64,000 nucleotides of DNA from a virus: IMG/VR virus record IMGVR_UViG_3300038451_000147, positions 41,336 through 105,335 of that record; one strand, written 5' to 3'. Shown here piece after piece: positions 3,638 through 62,893 of this stretch. Both the position numbers and the translations under genes were made by a program. Below the pieces are notes generated by a model. The model was not told where the DNA came from. It worked only from the letters and a program-made list of their open reading frames with translations, and did no database searches. The stretch's first letter is position 1; the number at the start of each line of letters is the position of its first letter.

Positions 3638-3675
3638 GAATGCTTATTAAGCACACAACCTATATAAACATTGCA

Positions 3676-5229
3676 ATGAGTAGTTCCAATGAGCGTCTTC
3701 TGAAGAGTCTGGAACAGGAGTTCGACAAAATTAAGGCGAAGGAACCCAAAGACGTTACTCTAGACCTCAGTGACCCTATGACATTTGTTGAGAACTACGT
3801 CAAACTTCCAGAGAAAGCTCCACCAGAGCAGAAGACTTGGTTCGAGCAACGGCCTTGGCTTTCAGAAATCTACAGAGATGGGAACAAGAGAATTGTTATA
3901 GTGAAGGGCCGACAGATGGAAGTCTCCGAGTATGCCGTGAATATGCTGTTCTATTGGGCCGCAAAATGGCCGGGGAAGTATATCTACGCCTCTTCGTCAG
4001 GTGACAAGGCAGATGTCTTCAGCCATGACCGCTACCAGAAGCAACTCTCTCGAAGCCCTACGCTCCAAGCCCTTGTGCGAGACGAAGCCGTTAGAAGGGT
4101 GCAATATGCGAAGTCCGAAGTCTACTTTATGACAGCCTATGAAGACACCAAGACTCTGAGAAGCATTGACGCTGATGGCATCATCCTTGATGAGTTCCAA
4201 GACTACAGGGCCAACGCCATCCCCATCGCTGAAGAGGGTCTGGCTCACAGTCAACTCAAGAGGCTTTGGGTGATAGGAACTCCCTATCTCACAGGAACCA
4301 ACTTCTCTAGTAAGTGGGACGAAAGCACAAAGAAGGAGTGGAACAAAGAGAAACAGATGTGGGAAGTAACCAACCCTAAGTCAGATGGGATGTGGCAAGG
4401 CTATCACATCAGTCAGGAGATGGCAGTAGGGGTATGGCTTACCCCAGAGGAGTTCGAGTATAGGAGAGCACACAAGCCAGCACAGGAGTTTGCGAATGAG
4501 TGTCTAGGATTATTCTATGCTGGACTCGGAAGACCGACAGACTACGGTTACATGAGTTCACTCTTCAGCCCGTCTTTAATGAAGGGCCAATTCGGAAAGG
4601 GTGAACTTCTGATTTCGGGTATAGATTGGGGTATCTCCAAGTCTAATACGGTCTTCTACTTGATTCGACCAAGACTTCTAGAGTTGCCAGACCTCTATAC
4701 AATAGACACTCTTTATGTTGAAAAGGTAGACAATCCAGATATAACCAAACAGATTGCAAGAATCGCGCAACTCCTCACTACCTTTCCCACTGTAATCAAT
4801 GTGCTAGACTACGGCACTGGTTTCGTGCAAAATCAGGAACTCTACAAACAGTTCGGAAACCGAGTGATACAGATAGAATTAGGCAGTGGAAAACTAGGCA
4901 AGCCCATAACGGTAGAGCAAACCGCCTTTGGCCCGATAGCCAAAGTCAACAGAACGTGGGCTATAGACACGGCTATGGATTACGTCACTAGACCAGACAG
5001 ATTCAGATTTTACAACGAGACAGACAAAGGCACAAAGGACTGGATTATCAGAGACTTTTTGGCTGAATACCCTGAAACGAGCAAAACCACCGAAAAGAAG
5101 ATTTGGATTCACAGTTCCGATGCCACAGACGACTGCCTCATCGCCTTCGTGAATGCTATGATTGGCTTCCAACTTCAGAAGTCGGCTAGTATGCCGGAGC
5201 GCGTGGAAGATATGATTAGTTTCGTGTGA
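3676..5229 (+). CDS. terL: Terminase large subunit
   Basis: Walker A-like KGRQMEVSE, Walker B IILDEFQD, motif III IGTP, nuclease GIDWG and C-terminal DDCLIA; start moved to ATG 3676 (24 nt after TTATTAA). Confidence 0.9.
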   Translation: MSSSNERLLKSLEQEFDKIKAKEPKDVTLDLSDPMTFVENYVKLPEKAPPEQKTWFEQRPWLSEIYRDGNKRIVIVKGRQMEVSEYAVNMLFYWAAKWPGKYIYASSSGDKADVFSHDRYQKQLSRSPTLQALVRDEAVRRVQYAKSEVYFMTAYEDTKTLRSIDADGIILDEFQDYRANAIPIAEEGLAHSQLKRLWVIGTPYLTGTNFSSKWDESTKKEWNKEKQMWEVTNPKSDGMWQGYHISQEMAVGVWLTPEEFEYRRAHKPAQEFANECLGLFYAGLGRPTDYGYMSSLFSPSLMKGQFGKGELLISGIDWGISKSNTVFYLIRPRLLELPDLYTIDTLYVEKVDNPDITKQIARIAQLLTTFPTVINVLDYGTGFVQNQELYKQFGNRVIQIELGSGKLGKPITVEQTAFGPIAKVNRTWAIDTAMDYVTRPDRFRFYNETDKGTKDWIIRDFLAEYPETSKTTEKKIWIHSSDATDDCLIAFVNAMIGFQLQKSASMPERVEDMISFV

Positions 5230-14002: not shown

Positions 14003-14761
14003 ATGCCATTCGCAGACTACAAGGACTTTACCGACTGTGTGTCTAAGAACAAGTCAAAAGACGACCCGTCAGCCTACTGTGGCTATATAAAACACCAAGT
14101 TGAGGGTGGCAAGAAGAAAGAAGAAATCATGGATTTCCCAGAGCACCAACTCTTCCATCTCGAAGAGGCAGAGAGGTCGCTTAACACAGGGCCAAGCGGA
14201 AAGAAACTTCCCTATCCCTGTCAGTATTGCACACAACAGTATCCAAGTTATTACGCTCTCTCCGAACACATGGGTATAGACCATCCAGACAAGTTCCAAC
14301 ATCAAGAAGAGTCTCATGGTGGAGACCGCCAGACCAGACTACCAAAAGGAGTTCAACACACTATAAAGAGGATGGGTGGGCCTGAATCGTGGAATCCAGA
14401 AGGAATAGAGAAGGAGACTGAGAATATCAAAGAGGCTACTGCTTTCCTCAACACACTGAAGGCAACGATTGATGAGGTCACGCTCATAGCAAAGGATACT
14501 GGTTACATGGGTGTCTCTAATAAGGTAAGTCCTACAGCACCCACCTACAGTTTCCCCGTCTCAGGAGACCTTGTAGATACCGTAGTCCATGAGGTAAAGG
14601 GCTTTGACGTTCAGACCAACTTCTACAACCAGACTATGGCTGAACTCAAAGACATCGTAAAGGATGCCGACAAGTTCTTCATAGACGCTGGCTGGAACTC
14701 CAAGGAAACCGTCAAGGAGTATGCGAAGCACATAAAGAAGAACGGAAAGGATTTCGATTAG
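14003..14761 (+). CDS. Modular protein with N-terminal PF..Y.DF.DC...P.AYC motif and a C2H2 finger
   Basis: CQYC..HMGIDH; the N-terminal motif is one I associate with viral head-region proteins; TATA 13971-13977. Confidence 0.6.
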   Translation: MPFADYKDFTDCVSKNKSKDDPSAYCGYIKHQVEGGKKKEEIMDFPEHQLFHLEEAERSLNTGPSGKKLPYPCQYCTQQYPSYYALSEHMGIDHPDKFQHQEESHGGDRQTRLPKGVQHTIKRMGGPESWNPEGIEKETENIKEATAFLNTLKATIDEVTLIAKDTGYMGVSNKVSPTAPTYSFPVSGDLVDTVVHEVKGFDVQTNFYNQTMAELKDIVKDADKFFIDAGWNSKETVKEYAKHIKKNGKDFD

Positions 14762-14802
14762 AAGTCAGCCTTATATAGCCCCACTACTCTAATTACTACA
14801 GT

Positions 14803-18159: not shown

Positions 18160-18420
18160 TCATTTGGACTTTGGTTGCTCTGGATAGCCAAGTTGCTTCC
18201 GCCTCTTCTCCCTCTCTTCCTTCGTGTCGTAAGGAAGTATTGTTCCCGACTCGAAGCCTATCTCATTCTGCATTATGGCGGGAGCGTTGGTGACTGGCTC
18301 GATGCTTCCCAAGCCGCTTCCTGTTGAGTAGATGACGCATTCTGGTCTCATATGTGCCAAATCGTCCTCTTCAGTCAGGATAGTGACATGATGAGTTGTG
18401 CAGACTCTTTCTATTCCCAT
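18160..18420 (-). CDS. Hypothetical protein
   Basis: Member of the 21318-18160 minus-strand operon. Confidence 0.5.
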   Translation of the reverse strand: MGIERVCTTHHVTILTEEDDLAHMRPECVIYSTGSGLGSIEPVTNAPAIMQNEIGFESGTILPYDTKEEREKRRKQLGYPEQPKSK

Positions 18421-18428
18421 GCTACCAC

Positions 18429-18704
18429 TTACTGGCTCTCTGCCCTATATAAAGATTCGTTGAAACCTTTGACCAATGCTTCAAGTCTTCTCTTGCCTAC
18501 CCTCTGATAATCAGTCTCTAAATCTTCAAGTGCTCTCGTCACTTCAAGAATGGTGTAGTTTATAGCTTTGTGCGCCCAAAACTCGCACTCGGATTCAGGA
18601 ACGGGTTTGCTTAGATTGTCTGTCTCTGTCATCCCATTGATTGAATCCAAGTAATCCATATAGGCTTGATTGCTTGCATCAAGACACTTCTGGCAGAAGT
18701 TCAT
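18429..18704 (-). CDS. Hypothetical protein (MNFCQKC...)
   Basis: ATGA overlap with the upstream ORF. Confidence 0.5.
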   Translation of the reverse strand: MNFCQKCLDASNQAYMDYLDSINGMTETDNLSKPVPESECEFWAHKAINYTILEVTRALEDLETDYQRVGKRRLEALVKGFNESLYRAESQ

Positions 18705-18937
18705 TGCTTCATCCCTCTGAATACTGCTACAATCCACCAGACGGCGGCTTGAAGCATCAACGTGGCTGTAGTTATGAGGAGTCCTTCTTCGTAGAAACAT
18801 GGAACCATGAACGTGAGCAAGGCCGAACACGGAATCGAAGTCTTTCGTGGAACTTGGGCGTTCTTATTCCATGCAGTAGGCATCGTAGTAAGTGCTAATC
18901 CGAATGACGCTATTGCTATCAGTAAATCCCATATCAA
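18701..18937 (-). CDS. Small 3-TM membrane protein
   Basis: TTGA overlap start; three hydrophobic segments. Confidence 0.5.
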   Translation of the reverse strand: MIWDLLIAIASFGLALTTMPTAWNKNAQVPRKTSIPCSALLTFMVPCFYEEGLLITTATLMLQAAVWWIVAVFRGMKQ

Positions 18938-19191
18938 AGAGACCCCACCCTCTCGATACCGCCAAAGTCTTGCATTAGAAGGTAAGTGCCTTCTGGTGTA
19001 AGTGGCCACGCCTTTGATTCGTAGACAAGTTTGTATGAGTCTTGGTCTGGGTCGTAGACAACACCAACAAGTTTCGCGTCAGAAGGGAGATGGGACTTAA
19101 TCCTGTAAACCCCATTCAACTTGAACATCTCTTGCATTCCTTCCCTAGTCACCAAAAGGAACTTCTTGCCAGTCATGGGTTGAGGCATCAT
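18934..19191 (-). CDS. Hypothetical protein
   Basis: Coupled to the uS2 stop codon. Confidence 0.55.
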   Translation of the reverse strand: MMPQPMTGKKFLLVTREGMQEMFKLNGVYRIKSHLPSDAKLVGVVYDPDQDSYKLVYESKAWPLTPEGTYLLMQDFGGIERVGSL

Positions 19192-19898
19192 TCTTCCTCA
19201 CCCTCTTCCTCTTTCTCTGGCATCTTGGTCTCGAAGTCTTCGATGGTAAGAGGCTCCTTTGTCTCATACTTGCAGATGTCTTCCATCTTCATCTCCTCTA
19301 GCCAGCCACTATGGAGTAGGATAGACCGGGCCAGAAGGTAGTAAACGGTGGCGATGGCCTTGGCTCCCACGTTGTTAGCCGGAATAGCGATATCCACATC
19401 CTCAAAGGTGGCGTTGGTGTTGCAGATGGCTATGACAGGGATGCCTATGCTAGAGGCTTCATACATGGCTCGTCTGTCTCCTCTCATGGCTTCCCCTATC
19501 TTCTGTGGGACTCCATTAGTAGGGTCTGAGACCACCAGACAGTCAGCATCCACATAACTCTTGATTTGAGAGTTGGTGAGGCTTCCCGCAACGAGACGGT
19601 GCATAACTATTGGGATGAGGGTAGCGGCATTGAAAGACTTGAGGGCATTGTCGAATCTGGGGTCTGTAGCATAGAACAAGGGTCTCATTGCAGGGTCTTG
19701 TCCATGTCGGCTTATGTGTTTGCCCACCACATCCAGTTTGTTCAGAATGGCGTTGATGTCCATCAATGGATTGCCAGCCGGAGAAACCTCAGAGACATAG
19801 ATGGCCATGTCTTTGGTGACACCGCCCTTTACCCCGATGTGGATGCCAGTGGCTCTGAGAGCGTCCTCTGTCAGCATCTTGGGAAGGATGAGACTCAT
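19188..19898 (-). CDS. rps2: Archaeal-type 30S ribosomal protein uS2, divergent
   Basis: GIHIG..TKDM..Y, R...GSLTN, VVSDP, EAS.IGIPVIAICNT, VDIAIPANN.G.KA..YYLLAR, IEDFETK, acidic tail. Confidence 0.92.
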   Translation of the reverse strand: MSLILPKMLTEDALRATGIHIGVKGGVTKDMAIYVSEVSPAGNPLMDINAILNKLDVVGKHISRHGQDPAMRPLFYATDPRFDNALKSFNAATLIPIVMHRLVAGSLTNSQIKSYVDADCLVVSDPTNGVPQKIGEAMRGDRRAMYEASSIGIPVIAICNTNATFEDVDIAIPANNVGAKAIATVYYLLARSILLHSGWLEEMKMEDICKYETKEPLTIEDFETKMPEKEEEGEEE

Positions 19899-21100
19899 GC
19901 AAAACTCTCCTCTACCGCCCTCACCAACTCGTCCAGAACGGCTTCTGGATTGTTGATGTGGGCCTTGGCAGACCCCGCTTCTCTCAAACCGCCACCTTCC
20001 ATGATGGTTGGATTGGCCGTTCTGAAGACCTTTCCGATGTGAATCGGACTATCCGCTTGGCCGTTCCTTCCTGAGACATGGATACCATACTTAGGAATGG
20101 TGTTGATGACGAACCAAGGCTTCTTGTTCTGGCCACCCAACTTGTTCGCCATTGCCGAGCCGATGTTCCATTCGTGGCTGATGACGGAGACTCCGTAGTT
20201 TCCAGTGACCATCGGGAACTCCAACTTCACGTTATTCTTCCAGTCCTCTGAGACCTTCTTGAACTCCGGCTTATACTTGATGTGGTTCATGGCCATCATC
20301 TGAGTATTGGGATTCTTCCCATCTGTAAAGAGAGGAGATGCCAAACTCCCCTTGGTTATCAGAGTATAGAGTTCCAACCAGTTGGGTATCTGCTCCAACT
20401 CCTTCATGGCCTCATAACAGAAAGGTGGTGCGGCATTGAAGACCATCCTACGTTGGACATGGAGCAACTGAGCATAGAAGTCTATGAGACCCCAATCATA
20501 GCCTAAATTCGCTTGTGTCGCTAAAAGCCCCTTGAGGCCAGCGTGTCTTGAAAGGATGTCCTGATAGATTGGGCCACCCTCTTGGCTGTCGCTTGCTACA
20601 TCGCCTCTGAGTCCGAGCAAGGCCCACTTCTCCATGTTGGCGATTGGCCATTCCAATCTCTTGGCCCACTTGTAGACGATTCCAGTGGTGCAGTTCTCAG
20701 TAGTTGATTCATAGACAAAGGTGGTGTTACCAACAGGTTCGGTCTTGTAACTAGACAAAAGTGCTTTGTATGTTGCGTAGTCTTCTGGGGTCTCCACTTC
20801 TGAGTCGGGCGGATGGTTGTCCCAAAGCACTACATTGATACCAGACTGCATAAGACTCATGGCCTTTGAGAGCATATCTAGGCCGCTTCCCAAGTCTAGA
20901 AGGTAAGCGGTTTCTGGCTTCAGAGCCTTGATTGCCGCTACATTCGCATCCGTCACCCCAAAAGTATCCCAATCTTGCCAGATGATGGTGTGCTTCGAGT
21001 TGGGCTTCGTTTGGGTGAGTGCATTGTGGACTATCCTAGTGGCGCACATCCCATCGGTATCTTCATCGGTCATAATGACCGTATCCTTGTTCTCGCTCAC
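19895..21100 (-). CDS. DHH-family phosphoesterase (RecJ/GAN/Cdc45-like)
   Basis: DEDTDG, LLDLG, DNH (in place of DHH), GLRGD, SGR, GGG...AG. Confidence 0.8.
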   Translation of the reverse strand: MSENKDTVIMTDEDTDGMCATRIVHNALTQTKPNSKHTIIWQDWDTFGVTDANVAAIKALKPETAYLLDLGSGLDMLSKAMSLMQSGINVVLWDNHPPDSEVETPEDYATYKALLSSYKTEPVGNTTFVYESTTENCTTGIVYKWAKRLEWPIANMEKWALLGLRGDVASDSQEGGPIYQDILSRHAGLKGLLATQANLGYDWGLIDFYAQLLHVQRRMVFNAAPPFCYEAMKELEQIPNWLELYTLITKGSLASPLFTDGKNPNTQMMAMNHIKYKPEFKKVSEDWKNNVKLEFPMVTGNYGVSVISHEWNIGSAMANKLGGQNKKPWFVINTIPKYGIHVSGRNGQADSPIHIGKVFRTANPTIMEGGGLREAGSAKAHINNPEAVLDELVRAVEESFA

Positions 21101-21318
21101 GCCTTTTCACCCGCTACAGCCCCGACCCCAATCTTGAGACCGAAACCGTTTTCGAGTTTGAACATGACAGCATGGTTCACTGTCATCTCTTCTGGCATCT
21201 CAACAGTCTTCGAGAACTTCTCTCTGGTGCGCTCGTCTGTCACAGTTAGCGCAAGAGTTCCATCTTTGCTTATCTTGTAGGGGCCGAAATCTCCTTCCCA
21301 CAATGTTTCTGTTTTCAT
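21097..21318 (-). CDS. Hypothetical protein, first gene of the operon
   Basis: TATA 21341-21347. Confidence 0.55.
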   Translation of the reverse strand: MKTETLWEGDFGPYKISKDGTLALTVTDERTREKFSKTVEMPEEMTVNHAVMFKLENGFGLKIGVGAVAGEKA

Positions 21319-21352
21319 GGCCTACCCATTCGTTTGAAGGTATTTAAGGATT

Positions 21353-22803: not shown

Positions 22804-23859
22804 CTATACGAAGGTAAGGCCACCAAGAGATGAGAGAACTAGGGCTATGTGGTTCCCTATGGTAGTAGTGCCACCGCCAGCGAACAGTAGAGCCACTGCT
22901 TTCTGGTCGCTCTGCCTCATGATTAAAGAGCCAGAGTCTCCGCCAGCACTGAACGGAGTGGTCATATCCTGAACGATGACCTGTTCTATGAAGGTTGCTA
23001 CATTGGAACCGCCATAGCCAACAGTGATGGTTCCAGCCGTATCTATCACAAGACCAGTGGTGACTCCTGTAGTGCGCCCGGATTTGGTCACAACATCTCC
23101 GTCTACAGCCTCACTTACCCCTATCGGAGAGAACAAACCGTTCTCCTGTGGCAGATAGTTGGTCTGGTCGTTGAGAGTGGCCCACGCACAATCAACTTGG
23201 TTCTGTGCTATTTGCTTGACTGTCCCATGAAGCCTTGTCTTCCTATGAAGACCCTTTGCCAAGCCATTGTATGCGCCAGAAATCATAGCGGCATTGGGAC
23301 AGTTGCTAGGCTGTGTGCCATCATACACAATCGGAACGAAATAGGCGAGTTTGGCTATCTGGTCATTGAGTAGAGTGCCACCATCGTAGGCTCCCGGCTG
23401 AAGGATGGGGTCTCCCATACTCGCATTGTTCTCATTGGCCAGAACGTGGTTGTTACTCAGAATGCCGATAGTGCCAGTCGGGTCTTTCACAAAGTAGTCT
23501 ATAGTGCCAGCCGTAATCTCATAGTGGCCTACGCTGATTCCGCCTATAAGGGGTCTGAACTTTTTTGTCGGGTCTTGAAAGGGTGGGGCCGACCTAGCCT
23601 TCTGATGACCAATCTCGATAACATCAACAGCGATTGTATTCCCATTCTCATCCTCTATGTTGTCTGGAAGTATCTCCTCTGCTTTCAACTCAGAGAGAGC
23701 CTTCTTCTTCTCAACGTAGACTCTTACGGCCATATTCCCTGTTCTCTTCCCGCCCTTGAGTTCGTCCTTCAACTCGGCACTGTAACCGTTGACATTCGGA
23801 AAGTTCTCATGGAAATATGCGAGAGCCGCAACTAGATTAGGATGTAGTCTTTTACCCAT
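22804..23859 (-). CDS. Trypsin-like serine protease (Nal1-like)
   Basis: SNNHVLA (His), VDCA (Asp), GDSGS (Ser), QPG..DGG, KSGRTTG. Confidence 0.9.
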   Translation of the reverse strand: MGKRLHPNLVAALAYFHENFPNVNGYSAELKDELKGGKRTGNMAVRVYVEKKKALSELKAEEILPDNIEDENGNTIAVDVIEIGHQKARSAPPFQDPTKKFRPLIGGISVGHYEITAGTIDYFVKDPTGTIGILSNNHVLANENNASMGDPILQPGAYDGGTLLNDQIAKLAYFVPIVYDGTQPSNCPNAAMISGAYNGLAKGLHRKTRLHGTVKQIAQNQVDCAWATLNDQTNYLPQENGLFSPIGVSEAVDGDVVTKSGRTTGVTTGLVIDTAGTITVGYGGSNVATFIEQVIVQDMTTPFSAGGDSGSLIMRQSDQKAVALLFAGGGTTTIGNHIALVLSSLGGLTFV

Positions 23860-34208: not shown

Positions 34209-35144
34209 CTACGAAGACCGCAAGTCGGTCATCTTCACAATACTTTCTGGGTATGTGATGACGGGCGCGTATCTTGCAGTAATCACAGTGTCTATCGAGT
34301 CGAAAGTCGGTTGCGGCCAAACATCTACGCTGATGGGTCTCTTAGTCGCAAAGTAGCCCAACGGGGCGTATGCGGCTGAGTAGTTGCTACCTGAAGCGGC
34401 AAGGATGTAAGCCCTACCACTGTTGGCAGTTCCATCAGTCAGAGGGATGTTCGGGGTGACTATCCGCTTAAGTCCATACAGCGCAGGGGCGGAAACGACT
34501 GTTCCCTGTCCCTGTTGGTATACGGGCTGTCCGAAGAAGAGTAGTGCGGCAAACTGCGGAATCCTAGCCAAGTCCTGATTCGCCATTGGATTCATCGCAA
34601 TGGTGTCAGGTTCCAGCATGAAGTTCTGGATGACTTGGATGCCGTTTGTTATGTCGTTAACTCCTATCGTGTTAGCGAATGTTCCGGGCGTTCCATCCAT
34701 GAACACTGAAGTTCCAGTGACACCGTAGGTGGTTTGAGCACCTGCGTTGAGAGCCTTCTCAACGTCTTGGTCAATCGTCATGACCACTCGTCTCGCGGCT
34801 CTTTTCAACTGGTCTTCTACTATGTTCACTATCTGGTCTTCAATCAACTCTCTGGTAACTCGGACTCTCATACCCACCTTGTAAGGTGTAACGGTAATCG
34901 AGTCGTAAGGTGTGAAGTCGGCCATTATCTCGGCCCCTTCCGCAGTCTTTCCTATAACTGCGTTGGCGCGAGCACCCTTTTGTTTCGGAATGGTGGCTGT
35001 TGAACCAACCTTGATGAAGAAGTCCTGAAGTAGAGGCTTCAATGCCAGATTGGGCATCGTAAGTTCTACTATCCTCTTCGCCAGTGCTGGATAGAACAGA
35101 GCACCAGTGTTAACTATCGGGAACTGCTCTCTTGTCATTGCCAT
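34209..35144 (-). CDS. Major capsid protein, HK97 fold
   Basis: AEGAEI, TPYKVG..V.VTRELIED, IDQD, PDTIAMNP, LYGL; follows protease-scaffold-cement. Confidence 0.9.
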   Translation of the reverse strand: MAMTREQFPIVNTGALFYPALAKRIVELTMPNLALKPLLQDFFIKVGSTATIPKQKGARANAVIGKTAEGAEIMADFTPYDSITVTPYKVGMRVRVTRELIEDQIVNIVEDQLKRAARRVVMTIDQDVEKALNAGAQTTYGVTGTSVFMDGTPGTFANTIGVNDITNGIQVIQNFMLEPDTIAMNPMANQDLARIPQFAALLFFGQPVYQQGQGTVVSAPALYGLKRIVTPNIPLTDGTANSGRAYILAASGSNYSAAYAPLGYFATKRPISVDVWPQPTFDSIDTVITARYAPVITYPESIVKMTDLRSS

Positions 35145-35638: not shown

Positions 35639-36163
35639 CTACCCTGAGAGTAGTCCCAGACTCTTGAACTTATCGGAAGCACTCATGAGTTCCTTGAACT
35701 CAGGTGGGATTTCGGTAGAGATACCCATAGCGGCAAGAGCACTGTTCTCTTCTTTTACCTCACCGACATTGCCCTTTCCATTGGCAGTGTTGGCAGGTGC
35801 AGAAGCAGTGGCCTCTTTCCGTTTCTTGGCCTCTTCCTCAACCTTAGACCGGACTTCCTGAAGCCTAGACTTCAGTTCTTCCAGTTTCTTCCGCTTTGTG
35901 GCTTCCTCTTCCTCTTTCTTGCGCTTCGCCTCTTCGTCCTCTTCAACCTTGCGGTTAGATGCCCGTCTCAGAGCAATCCTCTGGCTCAGTAGGGCTTGCC
36001 TCTTGCGAAGCGAGTCTTGCTGTTCCAGTTTCACATTGACCTCTTTGATTATGGACATCAGACCATCAAGTTTGGATTCGAGAGCACCGAATTGCTTCAC
36101 AACTTGGTCATAAGACAAAGTTTTGCCTTCGCTTATTTCACCAGAAGGTGCGACAGTAGCCAT
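35639..36163 (-). CDS. Scaffolding protein
   Basis: Charged coiled coil, linker, C-terminal amphipathic helix; synteny. Confidence 0.75.
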   Translation of the reverse strand: MATVAPSGEISEGKTLSYDQVVKQFGALESKLDGLMSIIKEVNVKLEQQDSLRKRQALLSQRIALRRASNRKVEEDEEAKRKKEEEEATKRKKLEELKSRLQEVRSKVEEEAKKRKEATASAPANTANGKGNVGEVKEENSALAAMGISTEIPPEFKELMSASDKFKSLGLLSG

Positions 36164-36249
36164 TTAGTTTCTTGATTTCTGGGGTGACGTTACATTTACC
36201 AATCGGCCAACTACACACCCATATAGAGTAGAAGGTGTCATAAGTGGAG

Positions 36250-36275
36250 TATATATGGTATACCCCTTATTTAAA
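36250..36275 (-). promoter_or_regulatory. Capsid-operon promoter with GGTATACC palindrome between TATA and predicted TSS
   Basis: TATA 36268-36275; ATATATGGTATACCC (36251-36265) repeated exactly at 50764-50778. Confidence 0.55.
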
Positions 36276-36284
36276 GCCTTCGCC

Positions 36285-37820
36285 TCAGTTCCCGAACATA
36301 TCGGGTGTTTCATCGCGTCCAATGACATCGAGATAGGTTTCCTCATCAACCATCTGTCCACAGCCACAGGGACACTTATACTGCTCCTTGGGTTCAGCCT
36401 CTTCTTGTCGTCCCTCTTTCGGAACCTCACCAGAACCACCACAGGTTTCACAATCGGCACCACTGATAGGGAACCGTCCTATTCCTGTGCAATCGGGACA
36501 CCAATCCATCCCCTCATGTGGTTTTATCCTCAACTTCTGCAAAACTCCTTCCTCTTTCCCTGCCTCTTCATAAACCAAGCAAGGGCAATCTGCCGCGCCC
36601 GGAAAATAGGACGTAGGCGCATGACAACCATCTTCTTGATGATACCCTCTCACATGACTGCATACACACTTGCCCTCTTCCTTCTTATCTTTCTCTCCAC
36701 CTTTCTCCACCAGTGGGAAGTCCTCTAGTGAGCCGCCTTTGGCCTCTTCAGTCTTTGCTCCACACATTTCGCAATCACCACAACGACAAGAAGAAGGACA
36801 ATTGCATCCGAAATTTTGACAACTTACACCACCCCATGTCTCATCTTCCTCTTCCTTTGGTTCATCCACTGGTTGCCCTAGAGATTTCATAAAGGCTTCT
36901 TCTTCGGGAGAAAAGCCATACTCCTCTATAGGCTTGTCTAAATCCAAGTCTCTCGCCTTTTGGCTGTATCTAATCTCAACTCGGTCTTCTGGATAGCCTT
37001 CCAAGGCCATTTTTGCCATCCTAAGTTGCATCTCAACCACTTCAGCAGTGACCATTCTGACTGCATTCATGGCCTCAAAGAGCATGGGTGTGAAGTTTGG
37101 AAGCACGATTTTAGCCGCCTTTGGCACTGGTTTGACCGTTGGCGGTGCTACTTTAGGCTCATAACGCGCCCTTAGAGCATAGTCAAGACTGGCTTTGAAT
37201 CCAAATGGAGTGATGTCAGCGTGTTCATAGGCAGGTATAGCTATGATAGACTGCTCCAAAGCCGCAGGTCGGCGTATCAACATATTCAAACTGCCGCATC
37301 TTGGGCAGGGAAGGTCAAGGTCTTCGATAGCGGCTTCCTGTTCGGACTTGCCTTGAGCGGTCATACAGTCATCACAATAGGCATTCGGGACAGCAATCTG
37401 GATGCTATTGTGCTTGATATAACCCAAAAGTATCTTCTGAATGATGTTTTCGTCACAAGTTTCACCCTTCCAGAAGACTTTTCCAGCCGTTGGGTCGTTC
37501 TTGTCTGGCTCTACCCATGCCTCTTCGACCTTCCCGATGATAGAATCAACGTGGTCTATGTCGTGGTCTTTCATCAGAGGGAGTCCCTTAAGTTGGTCAG
37601 CGATGGCTTGAAGGTCTTCTAGAGGCACTCTCCACTTGTTCCGGTTCCGAGAAGTGTCAATGGCCATACCACCAAGACCCAGAATGTGTGGAAAAGCACT
37701 TGGCCCTTCCTTCTTGTAGTTGTCAATGAGTTCAGCGTATCGCTTGGTCGTAACTAGGGGTGCGAGACCAGAACTATACTTGAAAGTCAGCCCCTTTCGG
37801 TCTGAAGGTATCGGAACCAT
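36285..37820 (-). CDS. Prohead protease with long Cys-rich C-terminal extension
   Basis: NRN, PLMKDH, IIGKV, NSI, EQSIIAIPAY. Confidence 0.8.
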   Translation of the reverse strand: MVPIPSDRKGLTFKYSSGLAPLVTTKRYAELIDNYKKEGPSAFPHILGLGGMAIDTSRNRNKWRVPLEDLQAIADQLKGLPLMKDHDIDHVDSIIGKVEEAWVEPDKNDPTAGKVFWKGETCDENIIQKILLGYIKHNSIQIAVPNAYCDDCMTAQGKSEQEAAIEDLDLPCPRCGSLNMLIRRPAALEQSIIAIPAYEHADITPFGFKASLDYALRARYEPKVAPPTVKPVPKAAKIVLPNFTPMLFEAMNAVRMVTAEVVEMQLRMAKMALEGYPEDRVEIRYSQKARDLDLDKPIEEYGFSPEEEAFMKSLGQPVDEPKEEEDETWGGVSCQNFGCNCPSSCRCGDCEMCGAKTEEAKGGSLEDFPLVEKGGEKDKKEEGKCVCSHVRGYHQEDGCHAPTSYFPGAADCPCLVYEEAGKEEGVLQKLRIKPHEGMDWCPDCTGIGRFPISGADCETCGGSGEVPKEGRQEEAEPKEQYKCPCGCGQMVDEETYLDVIGRDETPDMFGN

Positions 37821-37848
37821 CTCGTATTTATAGTGGGAGAACCTCTAT

Positions 37849-38178
37849 TTAAGGCTGTCCTTGAATGGGCCTCTCCTTAGTAGAGAACACTACGATAGCC
37901 ACCTTCGTTCCATAGGTTATCTTGGAGATAGCGGCCTCTCGTTTCCACATATAGGCTTTGGCGAACTCGGTTGGCAAGACTACTTTCACCTTTCCATCCA
38001 CAGAAACCACCTTGGCCTCAAACTTCTTATGTGAAGCGAACTCCAAAGCCTTGTGCTTCTCTTGAGTTATGTAGAACTCGTCCTCACTAGGGGCGTAGAT
38101 GAAGGCTTTGTCACCCCATTCCTTGGCGGTAACTAGGTCTCCTAAAGGCAGGTCTATGGTTTCAGTCGTGGTGGCCAT
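37849..38178 (-). CDS. Hypothetical protein
   Basis: In operon with SSB. Confidence 0.5.
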   Translation of the reverse strand: MATTTETIDLPLGDLVTAKEWGDKAFIYAPSEDEFYITQEKHKALEFASHKKFEAKVVSVDGKVKVVLPTEFAKAYMWKREAAISKITYGTKVAIVVFSTKERPIQGQP

Positions 38179-58314: not shown

Positions 58315-59946
58315 ATGTGTAGAATGGCATTAGTAATTGGGAAGGACAAGGCTCTTCAGAGTTTCGAGTTGGCTTTCAAGTCAGCATGGGCTGACATGAA
58401 TAACGATGGCGTAGGTTGCTTCTGGCGAGACTACCCGATTTACAAGACAGGTGAAGAGAAGCACTTGGCTCGATTCGTAGAGAGCAAAGACATGGCCCGA
58501 CTTGAGCGAACTTATGACCGGATGCTCATTCACTTCCGCAAAGCCACAAAGGGCGTAGGGACTCATCCGTTCATCTGCCGAGACAGACAGGACTTGAAAA
58601 GCGGAGACTGGCTTCTGGTTCACAATGGATGCGTTCAGGATGCACACGCAAGAGAGGTCTTGAAACCGAAACACATTCTCACAACTGAGATTGACAGCGA
58701 AGTTTTCATTCACATCTGGGCTGAGATTGACGAATCGAATCTAGAGAAGAGAGCTAAGAAGTTTGGCGAAGCGGCAGAGAAATTGAACATCACAGGATGG
58801 GCTAATCTCATCTTCTATAACTTCATTACAGACGAATGGGTTGCGCTGGCTGAATCTTCGCTTGGAATCTCGAAGACAAAGGACGGGAATATTGTCGTGG
58901 TCTCTTCAGACAGAGCGTGGTTAGACGATTCGCAAGCCAAGAAACTAGGAATCAAATACGAAGAGTTGCCTTACAGAGCAATCGCCTACGGCAAAGGAAC
59001 GTCTTACAAAACCAAGGAGAGGGTTTGGGGAGTAAAGGGCCAGACCATGATAACATCCTACTACCGACCTGATGGCAACGGAACCTACCGTAAGGTCTTC
59101 CCAGACGAAGACGACTGGACAGGGTACCCAGAGTCATGGGAGCCACAACAGGGCGTGATGCCATCTGAATTTGGGAAGGGCAAAGGGTTCTCAACTAAGA
59201 ACTTCAACAAGGCAATCATAAACGGGGCGCGTTGGGATGTAAAAATGAGGGCAATGGTAGACAAGAAGGGCCGACCCTTAGACTTTGAGACCTACAGCGA
59301 CCCTTCAGACCATGAGTTCGTTCCGTCTGGCTCGAAAGACGAATCAGGATTAGCCGTTTGCGATGTGTGCATGAATAGCCTACCCTACCACAACATTCTG
59401 AAGGAACTAACACGGAGCCAAGCCATTAATCGAGCCATTGAAGAGAGGGGAGACCCAGACAAGTGGGATAGGAGACACCCTTACACAAGAGACCTAGATT
59501 CTCCTACCTTGAAGTGTATGTGTGGACTTACATCAAGTTACAGCGTTATCCACATGGCCCACATATTCAAGGCTCTAGGTGGGAGCGACTACTGCATGGA
59601 TTGTGGACAAAACAGGGCAGTCGGCAATCACAAAGAGGAAGTTCCAGAGGGCCACTTCTACCGAGAGATGAAAGTGGAAGATGAACTGAAAAACGGGCAA
59701 AGGAAATTCGTGAACACAGGACATTGCATCCGATGTGGACTCGCAGAAGAGAAGCATCTGATGAACGACTTGGCCCACAAGAACCGTGAAGTGGTAGTCG
59801 TAAAACAGAGGCCGATGGGTTGCGATTGCAGACCCCAAGCCAGAATGATATGCTCGGTTCATCACAAGCAAGGTTTCAGAAGTTTCGACCAGAACGGAAT
59901 GCTAGTAAAAGAACAGGTCATTGAGTTCTCAATGGGAAATAACTAA
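58315..59946 (+). CDS. Class II (Ntn) glutamine amidotransferase with C-terminal Cys/His repeats
   Basis: N-terminal MC, DG.G, HFRKAT, THPF, HNG, DSE. Confidence 0.85.
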   Translation: MCRMALVIGKDKALQSFELAFKSAWADMNNDGVGCFWRDYPIYKTGEEKHLARFVESKDMARLERTYDRMLIHFRKATKGVGTHPFICRDRQDLKSGDWLLVHNGCVQDAHAREVLKPKHILTTEIDSEVFIHIWAEIDESNLEKRAKKFGEAAEKLNITGWANLIFYNFITDEWVALAESSLGISKTKDGNIVVVSSDRAWLDDSQAKKLGIKYEELPYRAIAYGKGTSYKTKERVWGVKGQTMITSYYRPDGNGTYRKVFPDEDDWTGYPESWEPQQGVMPSEFGKGKGFSTKNFNKAIINGARWDVKMRAMVDKKGRPLDFETYSDPSDHEFVPSGSKDESGLAVCDVCMNSLPYHNILKELTRSQAINRAIEERGDPDKWDRRHPYTRDLDSPTLKCMCGLTSSYSVIHMAHIFKALGGSDYCMDCGQNRAVGNHKEEVPEGHFYREMKVEDELKNGQRKFVNTGHCIRCGLAEEKHLMNDLAHKNREVVVVKQRPMGCDCRPQARMICSVHHKQGFRSFDQNGMLVKEQVIEFSMGNN

Positions 59947-61849: not shown

Positions 61850-62893
61850 ATGCCACTTAGACTAGACATTCCGATTCACTGCGCCGTGAAGGAAATCGAA
61901 CTCCTTCATGAAACCCTAGTGAAAGGGCTGGCAAGCAGAGACACCACAACTAACGAGAGATTGGTAAAACAACTGTATGAGACAGTATGCAACCTGAATC
62001 TCCAAGTCCGTTGTGTATGCTACGAACCAACGTGCCGCTATTGGGTGCATAACAATTGTCGGTGCAGTGGAGACCAACGATGCCTTGGTCTTGGTTATCT
62101 GACTCGACCCACAAGAGAACGTGAGAACGATGCACTAGAGGCTGAGATGAGGATGGCCGAAAGCGCATTAACAGAGAGCGACAAGGCCCGAAAGCCAGAC
62201 GAGCCGTTCATTGTCTGGAAGGTCAGAATCGCTTACAGGGTTAACCGCATGGCGAACCAGATTCACAACGCCCCAGAGAAGGGAGCCACACAATGGCATT
62301 ACGATAGTTGGAGAACCGAGAGTCCCATCACAAGGACTCACAACTTCAACGCATTCATCGTCAGAATCAGAGCGTTGCCACTGGAAGAGAGACCAACAGG
62401 GATGGACGTAACTCAAGTCGTGGGTTGCTCAGTCTGCAATTATGTTTACGTTGACATGGAATCCTTAGAGACCCATGTAGACAGACTGAGGTTCAACGGG
62501 CATTCGCTTCACAGCAATGCAGAGGCGATAACAGACACCACACATGAGCGCGTGAGAGAGACTTCGCCAGACTACAGACCACCGATTCCCACGTTTGAAC
62601 CTGACCCATATGGGATACCTATTCCACCGGAGCCAGAGGAAGGGCCAGAGTCTTCAGACGGCCATGAGGGATTGCTTGACCGTCTTTACAGAGAGGACGA
62701 AGAAGATGACGACCAATATAGAGAACGGCTCAGTGACTACATCAGAAACTACCACAATTCCAGCCACCTTTACGATGTGGTGGGTTGCTCCCACTGTGGA
62801 AGAATCTTTAGGAACGGGTTCGACTACTACGGACACGCGAGTTCTAACCATAACATGACTGCCCAAAGAGCGAGAGATAACTTAGTGCAGTGA
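61850..62893 (+). CDS. Protein with two C2H2-like fingers
   Basis: VVGCSVC..H..H and VVGCSHC..H..H. Confidence 0.6.
   Translation: MPLRLDIPIHCAVKEIELLHETLVKGLASRDTTTNERLVKQLYETVCNLNLQVRCVCYEPTCRYWVHNNCRCSGDQRCLGLGYLTRPTRERENDALEAEMRMAESALTESDKARKPDEPFIVWKVRIAYRVNRMANQIHNAPEKGATQWHYDSWRTESPITRTHNFNAFIVRIRALPLEERPTGMDVTQVVGCSVCNYVYVDMESLETHVDRLRFNGHSLHSNAEAITDTTHERVRETSPDYRPPIPTFEPDPYGIPIPPEPEEGPESSDGHEGLLDRLYREDEEDDDQYRERLSDYIRNYHNSSHLYDVVGCSHCGRIFRNGFDYYGHASSNHNMTAQRARDNLVQ

Follow-up and report, generated by a model that had tools for sequence, protein, structure and literature searches.

Why would a virus carry its own copy of a universal small-subunit ribosomal protein, and what could such a protein do in the infected cell? 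The question is raised by an open reading frame of 236 amino acids at positions 19188..19898 (minus strand) of the window, i.e., of the 64,000 nt of viral DNA analysed here, which correspond to bases 41336-105335 of the 105,335-bp IMG/VR record IMGVR_UViG_3300038451_000147 (G000 as a whole genome). A preliminary description of this DNA had proposed that the frame encodes a full-length but remodelled archaeal uS2 lying outside any ribosomal operon, and that this protein may replace or compete with host uS2 and bias initiation towards leaderless viral mRNAs.

A uS2 gene in a viral operon

The frame matches the Pfam family PF00318 (Ribosomal_S2) with 49.5 bits, above the cut-off of 26.1, but the alignment with this bacterial-biased model covers only residues 141-193. 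The NCBIfam model for the eukaryotic and archaeal protein, TIGR01012 (uS2_euk_arch), is matched with 119 bits over positions 6-183 of 196, short of its equivalog cut-off of 211.5. Judged by these profiles the protein is a uS2 homologue, whose functional equivalence the TIGR01012 score does not certify. A phmmer search of the PDB sequences returned uS2 chains only, archaeal ones first, with a 12-residue gap in the targets after VVSDP. The AlphaFold2 model (alignment A1) has a pLDDT of 89.4 and a pTM of 0.87, with values above 90 in the inserted loop. It adopts the uS2 alpha/beta fold: the top Foldseek matches are all uS2, led by the archaeal chains 1vi5, 9fhl_B, 9qf4 and 9znf_BB, and archaeal uS2 chains superpose with target-normalised TM scores of 0.83-0.92 and an rmsd of 2.1-2.6 Å. 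The window thus encodes a genuine viral homologue of archaeal/eukaryotic-type uS2, and the initial identification holds on the PF00318 match, TIGR01012 coverage, fold and gene context alike.

The uS2 gene is the third cistron of a four-gene operon on the minus strand. The first cistron (73 aa, 21097..21318) overlaps the start of the second by 4 bases and is preceded by a putative operon promoter, the TATA-like box CCTTAAATA at 21341..21349 (minus strand), which lies 31 to 23 nt upstream of its ATG; judged from this spacing, the first cistron appears to be leaderless. The second cistron encodes a RecJ/DHH-like protein of 401 aa (19895..21100) with an invariant DNH in place of DHH in motif III and GGGL in place of GGGH. 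The stop of this gene and the start of uS2 share an ATGA, and the uS2 stop overlaps in the same manner the start of a poorly conserved 85-aa frame (18934..19191), so that the translational coupling noticed at first sight is present on both sides. The RecJ-like, uS2 and 85-aa frames each combine an SD-like motif with the 4-base overlap. None of 17 neighbouring ORFs, which reach 7.0 kb on one side of uS2 and 4.8 kb on the other, matches a ribosomal protein family, again as first described; uS2 rather sits in the part of the genome devoted to replication and nucleic-acid metabolism.

The two flanks of the gene are conserved to different degrees. The 18 proteins of the RecJ-like family occur on no contigs but those of about 100 kb that also carry viral uS2, in every case with translational coupling between the two genes; L002, L003 and L004 keep them side by side, in a common gene order that comprises g22115, an RNaseH-like exonuclease, the RecJ-like protein and uS2. 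A complex prediction for the RecJ-like protein with viral uS2 scored 0.00 and counts neither way. On the other side, the 85-aa frame finds only a 35% match in L002, and window positions 18458-19188, which hold this frame and one of 133 aa, cannot be aligned at the DNA level with L088 or L090, relatives of 79% identity. As far as these alignments tell, the stretch just downstream of uS2 is a variable spot beside a conserved gene.

The genome itself has direct terminal repeats and a CheckV completeness of 100%. The window contains the genes for an HK97-type major capsid protein (34209-35144) and for the large terminase TerL (3640-5229); 160 ORFs were called in the whole genome and no tRNA genes were found in it. 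Other annotated genes include a Nal1-like serine protease domain, a class-II glutamine amidotransferase-like protein and two C2H2 zinc-finger proteins, at four loci, 22804-23859 (minus strand), 58315-59946, 14003-14761 and 61850-62893 (all plus strand). This is a complete tailed virus of archaea, whose host is probably a member of the Nitrososphaerota of the ammonia-oxidiser type.

Following the suggestion to look for the gene on related viral contigs, uS2 orthologues of 53-79% identity were found in four other IMG/VR records: a fragment of 37.5 kb, a record of 105.7 kb that has terminal repeats, and two more of 91.4 kb and 106.9 kb. The gene order recurs in these records and in several metagenome contigs. 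All four records of at least 91 kb, the genome of the window included, carry uS2. The capsid protein is 86% identical in the two full-length sister genomes where it was found, as compared with 53-66% for uS2; five fragments with the same capsid protein were also tested, and these are too short to show presence or absence of uS2. Within the viral clade described below, proteins with the insertion are never encoded on contigs larger than about 108 kb, and P0020, the nearest relative that lacks it, is encoded on a contig of 288 kb. One of the records, G004 (IMGVR_UViG_3300021476_000423, 106,907 bp), is classed by IMG/VR as a provirus excised from a contig of 110,754 bp. This label was given no weight, since a search for a tyrosine integrase drew a blank in G000, G002, G003 and G004.

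Origin, selection and remodelling

Among 185,579 species genomes, the best matches to viral uS2 are Nitrososphaerota MAGs with 35-37% identity, and identity to the nearest cellular proteins overall amounts to 35-39%. A profile search of 1.84 billion representative sequences yielded about seven clusters at 50% identity that score above 200 bits. In a maximum-likelihood tree of uS2, from which two mis-extracted rows (L029 and L056) had been left out, the 17 proteins of the viruses group together in a single clade (SH-aLRT 98). This clade joins the Nitrososphaerota side, with all non-Nitrososphaerota archaea behind a split of support 100, in line with the attachment that the preliminary description had suggested looking for. 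Such a topology agrees with a single capture, long ago, from a Nitrososphaerota-like host that may have been followed by vertical inheritance, and the tree position is the best host evidence for this virus.

Selection was estimated from pairs with unsaturated dS; at less than about 70% identity saturation sets in, and such pairs were left out. Pairwise dN/dS values range overall from 0.055 to 0.17, the mark of purifying selection: 0.055 for the window protein against L087, 0.14-0.16 against L088, L089 and L091, and 0.135 for L093 against L094. The neutral evolution of orthologues about which the preliminary description had cautioned is not what these values indicate. In a single contig of 1.4 kb the orthologue (L095:552-1216) is frameshifted, either by an assembly error or as a rare pseudogene.

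These data also bear on the most prosaic explanation, according to which the gene is a piece of cellular DNA mis-assembled or mis-binned into a viral contig, or else a decaying passenger. The sequence is, after all, a metagenome assembly, and a short relative, L095, does carry a frameshift. But L086, a contig assembled from a different sample, matches window positions 18197-20197 with 99.1% identity and spans both uS2 junctions, and the RecJ-uS2 junction is spanned as well by L087-L092 and L002-L004; since the same junctions were assembled independently, the chimeric join against which we had been warned is very unlikely. Moreover, the context of a cellular uS2 gene is quite different: L103, a cellular relative that comes from the same series of samples, shows RpoD, L18e, L13, S9, RpoN, enolase, uS2, Memo and mevalonate kinase, and viral uS2 is not in the cellular cluster RpoN, enolase, uS2, Memo, mevalonate kinase but in a viral operon. 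Together with a dN/dS far below 1, this leads us to reject contamination or a chimera, and an artefact of any such kind appears exceedingly improbable. Terminal repeats, capsid protein, TerL, shared gene order and independently assembled junctions place uS2 in a bona fide virus genome.

The viral protein is distinguished from its cellular counterparts by a clade-specific insertion, TNGVPQKIGEAMR, which occupies residues ~127-139 (19482..19520, minus strand) between the strand LVVSDP and the helix DRRAMYEA. A loop of 12-14 aa after VSDP is present in all 17 proteins of the viral clade and absent from cellular uS2. Its consensus in the 17 members reads TNG(V/I)PxK(I)G....G, with N128, G129 and P131 invariant. 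The insertion of about 12 aa after VVSDP reported from first inspection, like the altered motifs RLVAGSLTN and CNTN, is indeed in the sequence and agrees with the 12-residue gap relative to solved archaeal uS2 structures. The change in RFxPG is less general than had been supposed: the P-to-A replacement is present here, but it is a trait of some viral subclades and not of the whole clade.

Remodelling is not confined to the loop. Of the 59 columns that are conserved to at least 80% in 49 cellular archaeal uS2 proteins, 33 retain the cellular residue in 80% or more of the viral clade. In 18 the viral consensus differs, the changes including L43N, R79D, Y81R, P85A, Q143R, D160N, N163A and W187Y. 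Three basic residues that archaea conserve, R39, R79 and R179, have disappeared or shifted, and basic residues in the core are fewer by about four, changes that could weaken rRNA binding. In addition, 28 clade-specific residues are at least 90% conserved in the viruses and differ from the cellular consensus. Throughout the clade, by contrast with these positions, the motifs universal to uS2 (GxLTN, DP, IPxxA, PxNN and the C-terminal DFE) do not vary. Each viral protein matches 59-71% of the 59 columns (median 64%); the window protein, in which R39, R79 and R179 are lost, matches 63%, the same value as P0033, a eukaryotic uS2 that serves in ribosomes and the one such sequence compared. Changes of this extent are therefore compatible with binding to the ribosome, but their pattern, i.e., a new loop and moved charges, points to an altered surface of uS2.

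Loops at this position are found elsewhere too. Seven distant uS2-like proteins from metagenomes (P0035-P0039, P0043 and P0044) have insertions of ~8-30 aa in the same loop after (S/T)DP. They are encoded on short contigs and may represent further lineages of uS2 on mobile elements. Scans of viral contigs with P0020, P0035 and P0037 as queries gave no match.

Initiation signals across the viral genome

In 47 of the 160 ORFs a TATA-like motif, (C/T)TT(A/T)4, lies with its 5' end 34-30 nt ahead of the start codon, a sharp peak against a background of about 1% per 10-nt window, and 41 of these 47 ORFs have an upstream spacer of more than 25 nt. Examples lie at window positions 14769-14777, 21341-21349 and 36000-37860. 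The spacing corresponds to the geometry expected of archaeal TATA boxes driving leaderless mRNAs, implying that most promoter-proximal genes would be leaderless. Five-mers complementary to the anti-SD precede 17 of 66 tightly coupled ORFs as compared with 7 of 88 promoter-proximal ones (background 5.8%).

The preliminary description had divided the genome into an SD-led, putatively early block and leaderless structural genes. Two styles of initiation do coexist, leaderless for promoter-proximal genes and SD-led for internal ones, but which style a gene uses depends on its place in the operon as much as on any division into early and structural genes: uS2 is SD-led, and the gene for the capsid protein is itself an internal cistron. 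In the block from 50.9 to 64 kb of the window, none of the 23 ORFs has a promoter at leaderless distance. Here, between 51408 and 53173 (plus strand), short tandem ORFs are joined by CTAGAC(T/A)TG, a junction formed by a TAG stop, two bases and a TTG or ATG start, which occurs 7 times in 1.8 kb; the whole window contains 9 matches against 1.8 expected. From the sequence, the tandem ORFs and the want of leaderless-distance promoters suggest termination-reinitiation on a long polycistronic mRNA, with the use of TTG starts.

Possible roles on the ribosome and known systems

In the reading that we prefer, the ancestor of a lineage of tailed archaeal viruses of ~91-107 kb would have acquired uS2 once, long ago, from a Nitrososphaerota-like host. 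Purifying selection has kept the gene intact, and the protein has been remodelled through the structured loop, the loss or relocation of R39, R79 and R179, and residues that are conserved among the viruses but different from those of cells. The viral protein would then occupy the uS2 site of host 30S subunits, and initiation or mRNA handling on the ribosomes modified by the virus would favour viral messages. The parts of this proposal do not carry the same weight. We consider it slightly the better bet that viral uS2 enters host ribosomes. That it biases leaderless versus SD-led initiation, in either direction, is possible but doubtful, and we hold the full proposal just as tentatively: that a Nitrososphaerota virus lineage of ~100 kb re-fits the host small subunit such that leaderless translation, relative to the SD-led or re-initiating kind, is rebalanced to the benefit of viral messages.

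The preliminary description leaned on a precedent from E. coli. In this bacterium, bS1 is the protein through which the loss of S2 acts on leaderless translation; archaea are not known to possess bS1, so the analogy is weak, and any bias could go either way. The preference for leaderless mRNAs has indeed been reported, but for E. coli ribosomes that lack both bS1 and uS2 (Schmitt et al. 2020, PMC7531240). In archaea, uS2 is situated where the mRNA exit chamber ends (PMC7531240).

A simpler role can be imagined if host gene expression is shut off or if host uS2 is limiting. Viral uS2 might then be equal in function to the host protein and sustain the assembly or repair of ribosomes, leaving translation choice unchanged. 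Binding of uS2 late in small-subunit assembly would suit such a replacement, as would purifying selection and the retention of the fold, the invariant core and the C-terminal motifs. Viral ribosomal proteins are, moreover, generally of the exchangeable kind: they are enriched for exchangeable, solvent-exposed proteins, and for two of them, bS21 and bL12, entry into ribosomes has been demonstrated (Mizuno et al. 2019, PMC6375957). Nevertheless, a plain replacement is not expected to have a conserved new loop and 28 clade-specific residues, nor to have diverged to 35-39% identity from the nearest cellular uS2, and we regard this role as unlikely.

The same late binding could serve a hostile purpose. 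By filling its site on the 30S subunit or its precursor, viral uS2 could block host translation or the late maturation of the small subunit; in eukaryotes the 18S 3' end does not mature without uS2, and the surface of the viral protein is remodelled with a new loop. Yet the virus itself needs active ribosomes for its ~160 ORFs, and no sequence feature points to an inhibitory mode, which makes a dominant-negative action very unlikely. Somewhat less improbable, but still quite unlikely in our judgement, is that the fold has left the ribosome altogether and now binds something else, for example a host factor or defence by which uS2 is sensed or targeted, or a viral nucleic-acid enzyme such as the RecJ-like protein. 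The score below the TIGR01012 equivalog cut-off, the loss of conserved basic residues, the strictly conserved coupling to the RecJ-like gene with both families on the same contigs, and the position among genes of replication and not of translation would all agree with such a repurposing or decoy function. Against it, the viral proteins have moved no further from the archaeal consensus than has a eukaryotic uS2 that works in ribosomes, and GxLTN, DP, IPxxA, PxNN and DFE have remained invariant in the clade.

Entry of viral uS2 into ribosomes would provide a handle on the choice between leaderless and SD-led initiation in archaea and on the question whether viruses build specialised ribosomes. 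If the host small subunit is re-fitted in the way tentatively proposed above, no earlier case would be known, either in archaea or for any universal protein of the ribosomal core. Should the protein stay outside ribosomes, the virus would have turned a ribosomal fold to a new function. The gene is also a host marker for the virus lineage.

No report of a viral uS2 was found in the published literature searched, no uS2-like viral structure in BFVD at E 0.001 or better, and neither viral uS2 nor the capsid protein of this virus by tblastn in 50,697 GenBank phage records. uS2 was among the 106 profiles used in a survey of viral ribosomal proteins and is absent from its detections as far as the accessible parts of the text and supplements list them (Mizuno et al. 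2019, PMC6375957).

The closest known protein is of course cellular archaeal uS2 (S2P; nearest in Nitrososphaerota; structures 1vi5/1vi6, 9fhl_B, 9qf4 and 9znf_BB), which is of the same length class, has the same alpha/beta fold and has in common with the viral protein the motifs GxLTN, DP, IPV(I/V)A, IPxNN and the C-terminal DFE. The viral protein differs by CNTNAT in place of CDTD, by NNxGAKA in place of NN(K/R)G(R)K, by the lost R39, R79 and R179 and by the loop gained after SDP, and its gene belongs to an operon of replication genes instead of the RpoN-enolase-uS2-Memo cluster. On archaeal mobile elements, Borgs of Methanoperedens sometimes carry rpS2, which forms a group of its own next to the host copy according to the legend of Extended Data Fig. 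9B (Al-Shayeb et al. 2022, PMC9605863). This likeness is one of description, and Borgs are giant linear extrachromosomal elements of a euryarchaeal host and not capsid-forming viruses. Tailed archaeal viruses are already known to encode a ribosomal protein, the eL21 of the haloarchaeal Hafunaviridae, the first of archaeal viruses according to its authors (Liu et al. 2021, PMC8651126); it belongs to the large subunit, to a different protein family and to viruses of another host phylum.

The bacteriophage cases (bS21, bL12, bL9, bL31, bL33 and others; PMC6375957) resemble viral uS2 in several respects: a single gene in a tailed virus, purifying selection and recurrence in related viruses, together with the notion of a peripheral, exchangeable protein taking the place of the host copy. 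Nearly all known virus-encoded ribosomal proteins are small, bacterial and located at the ribosome periphery; those of bacteriophages are mostly small and bacterial (PMC6375957), unlike the 236-aa universal protein of archaeal type described here, which extends the phenomenon to an ecologically weighty group of archaea, the relatives of the ammonia oxidisers. Virus-encoded ribosomal proteins are thus a known class, to which the remodelled uS2 of an archaeal virus adds a universal protein of the small subunit.
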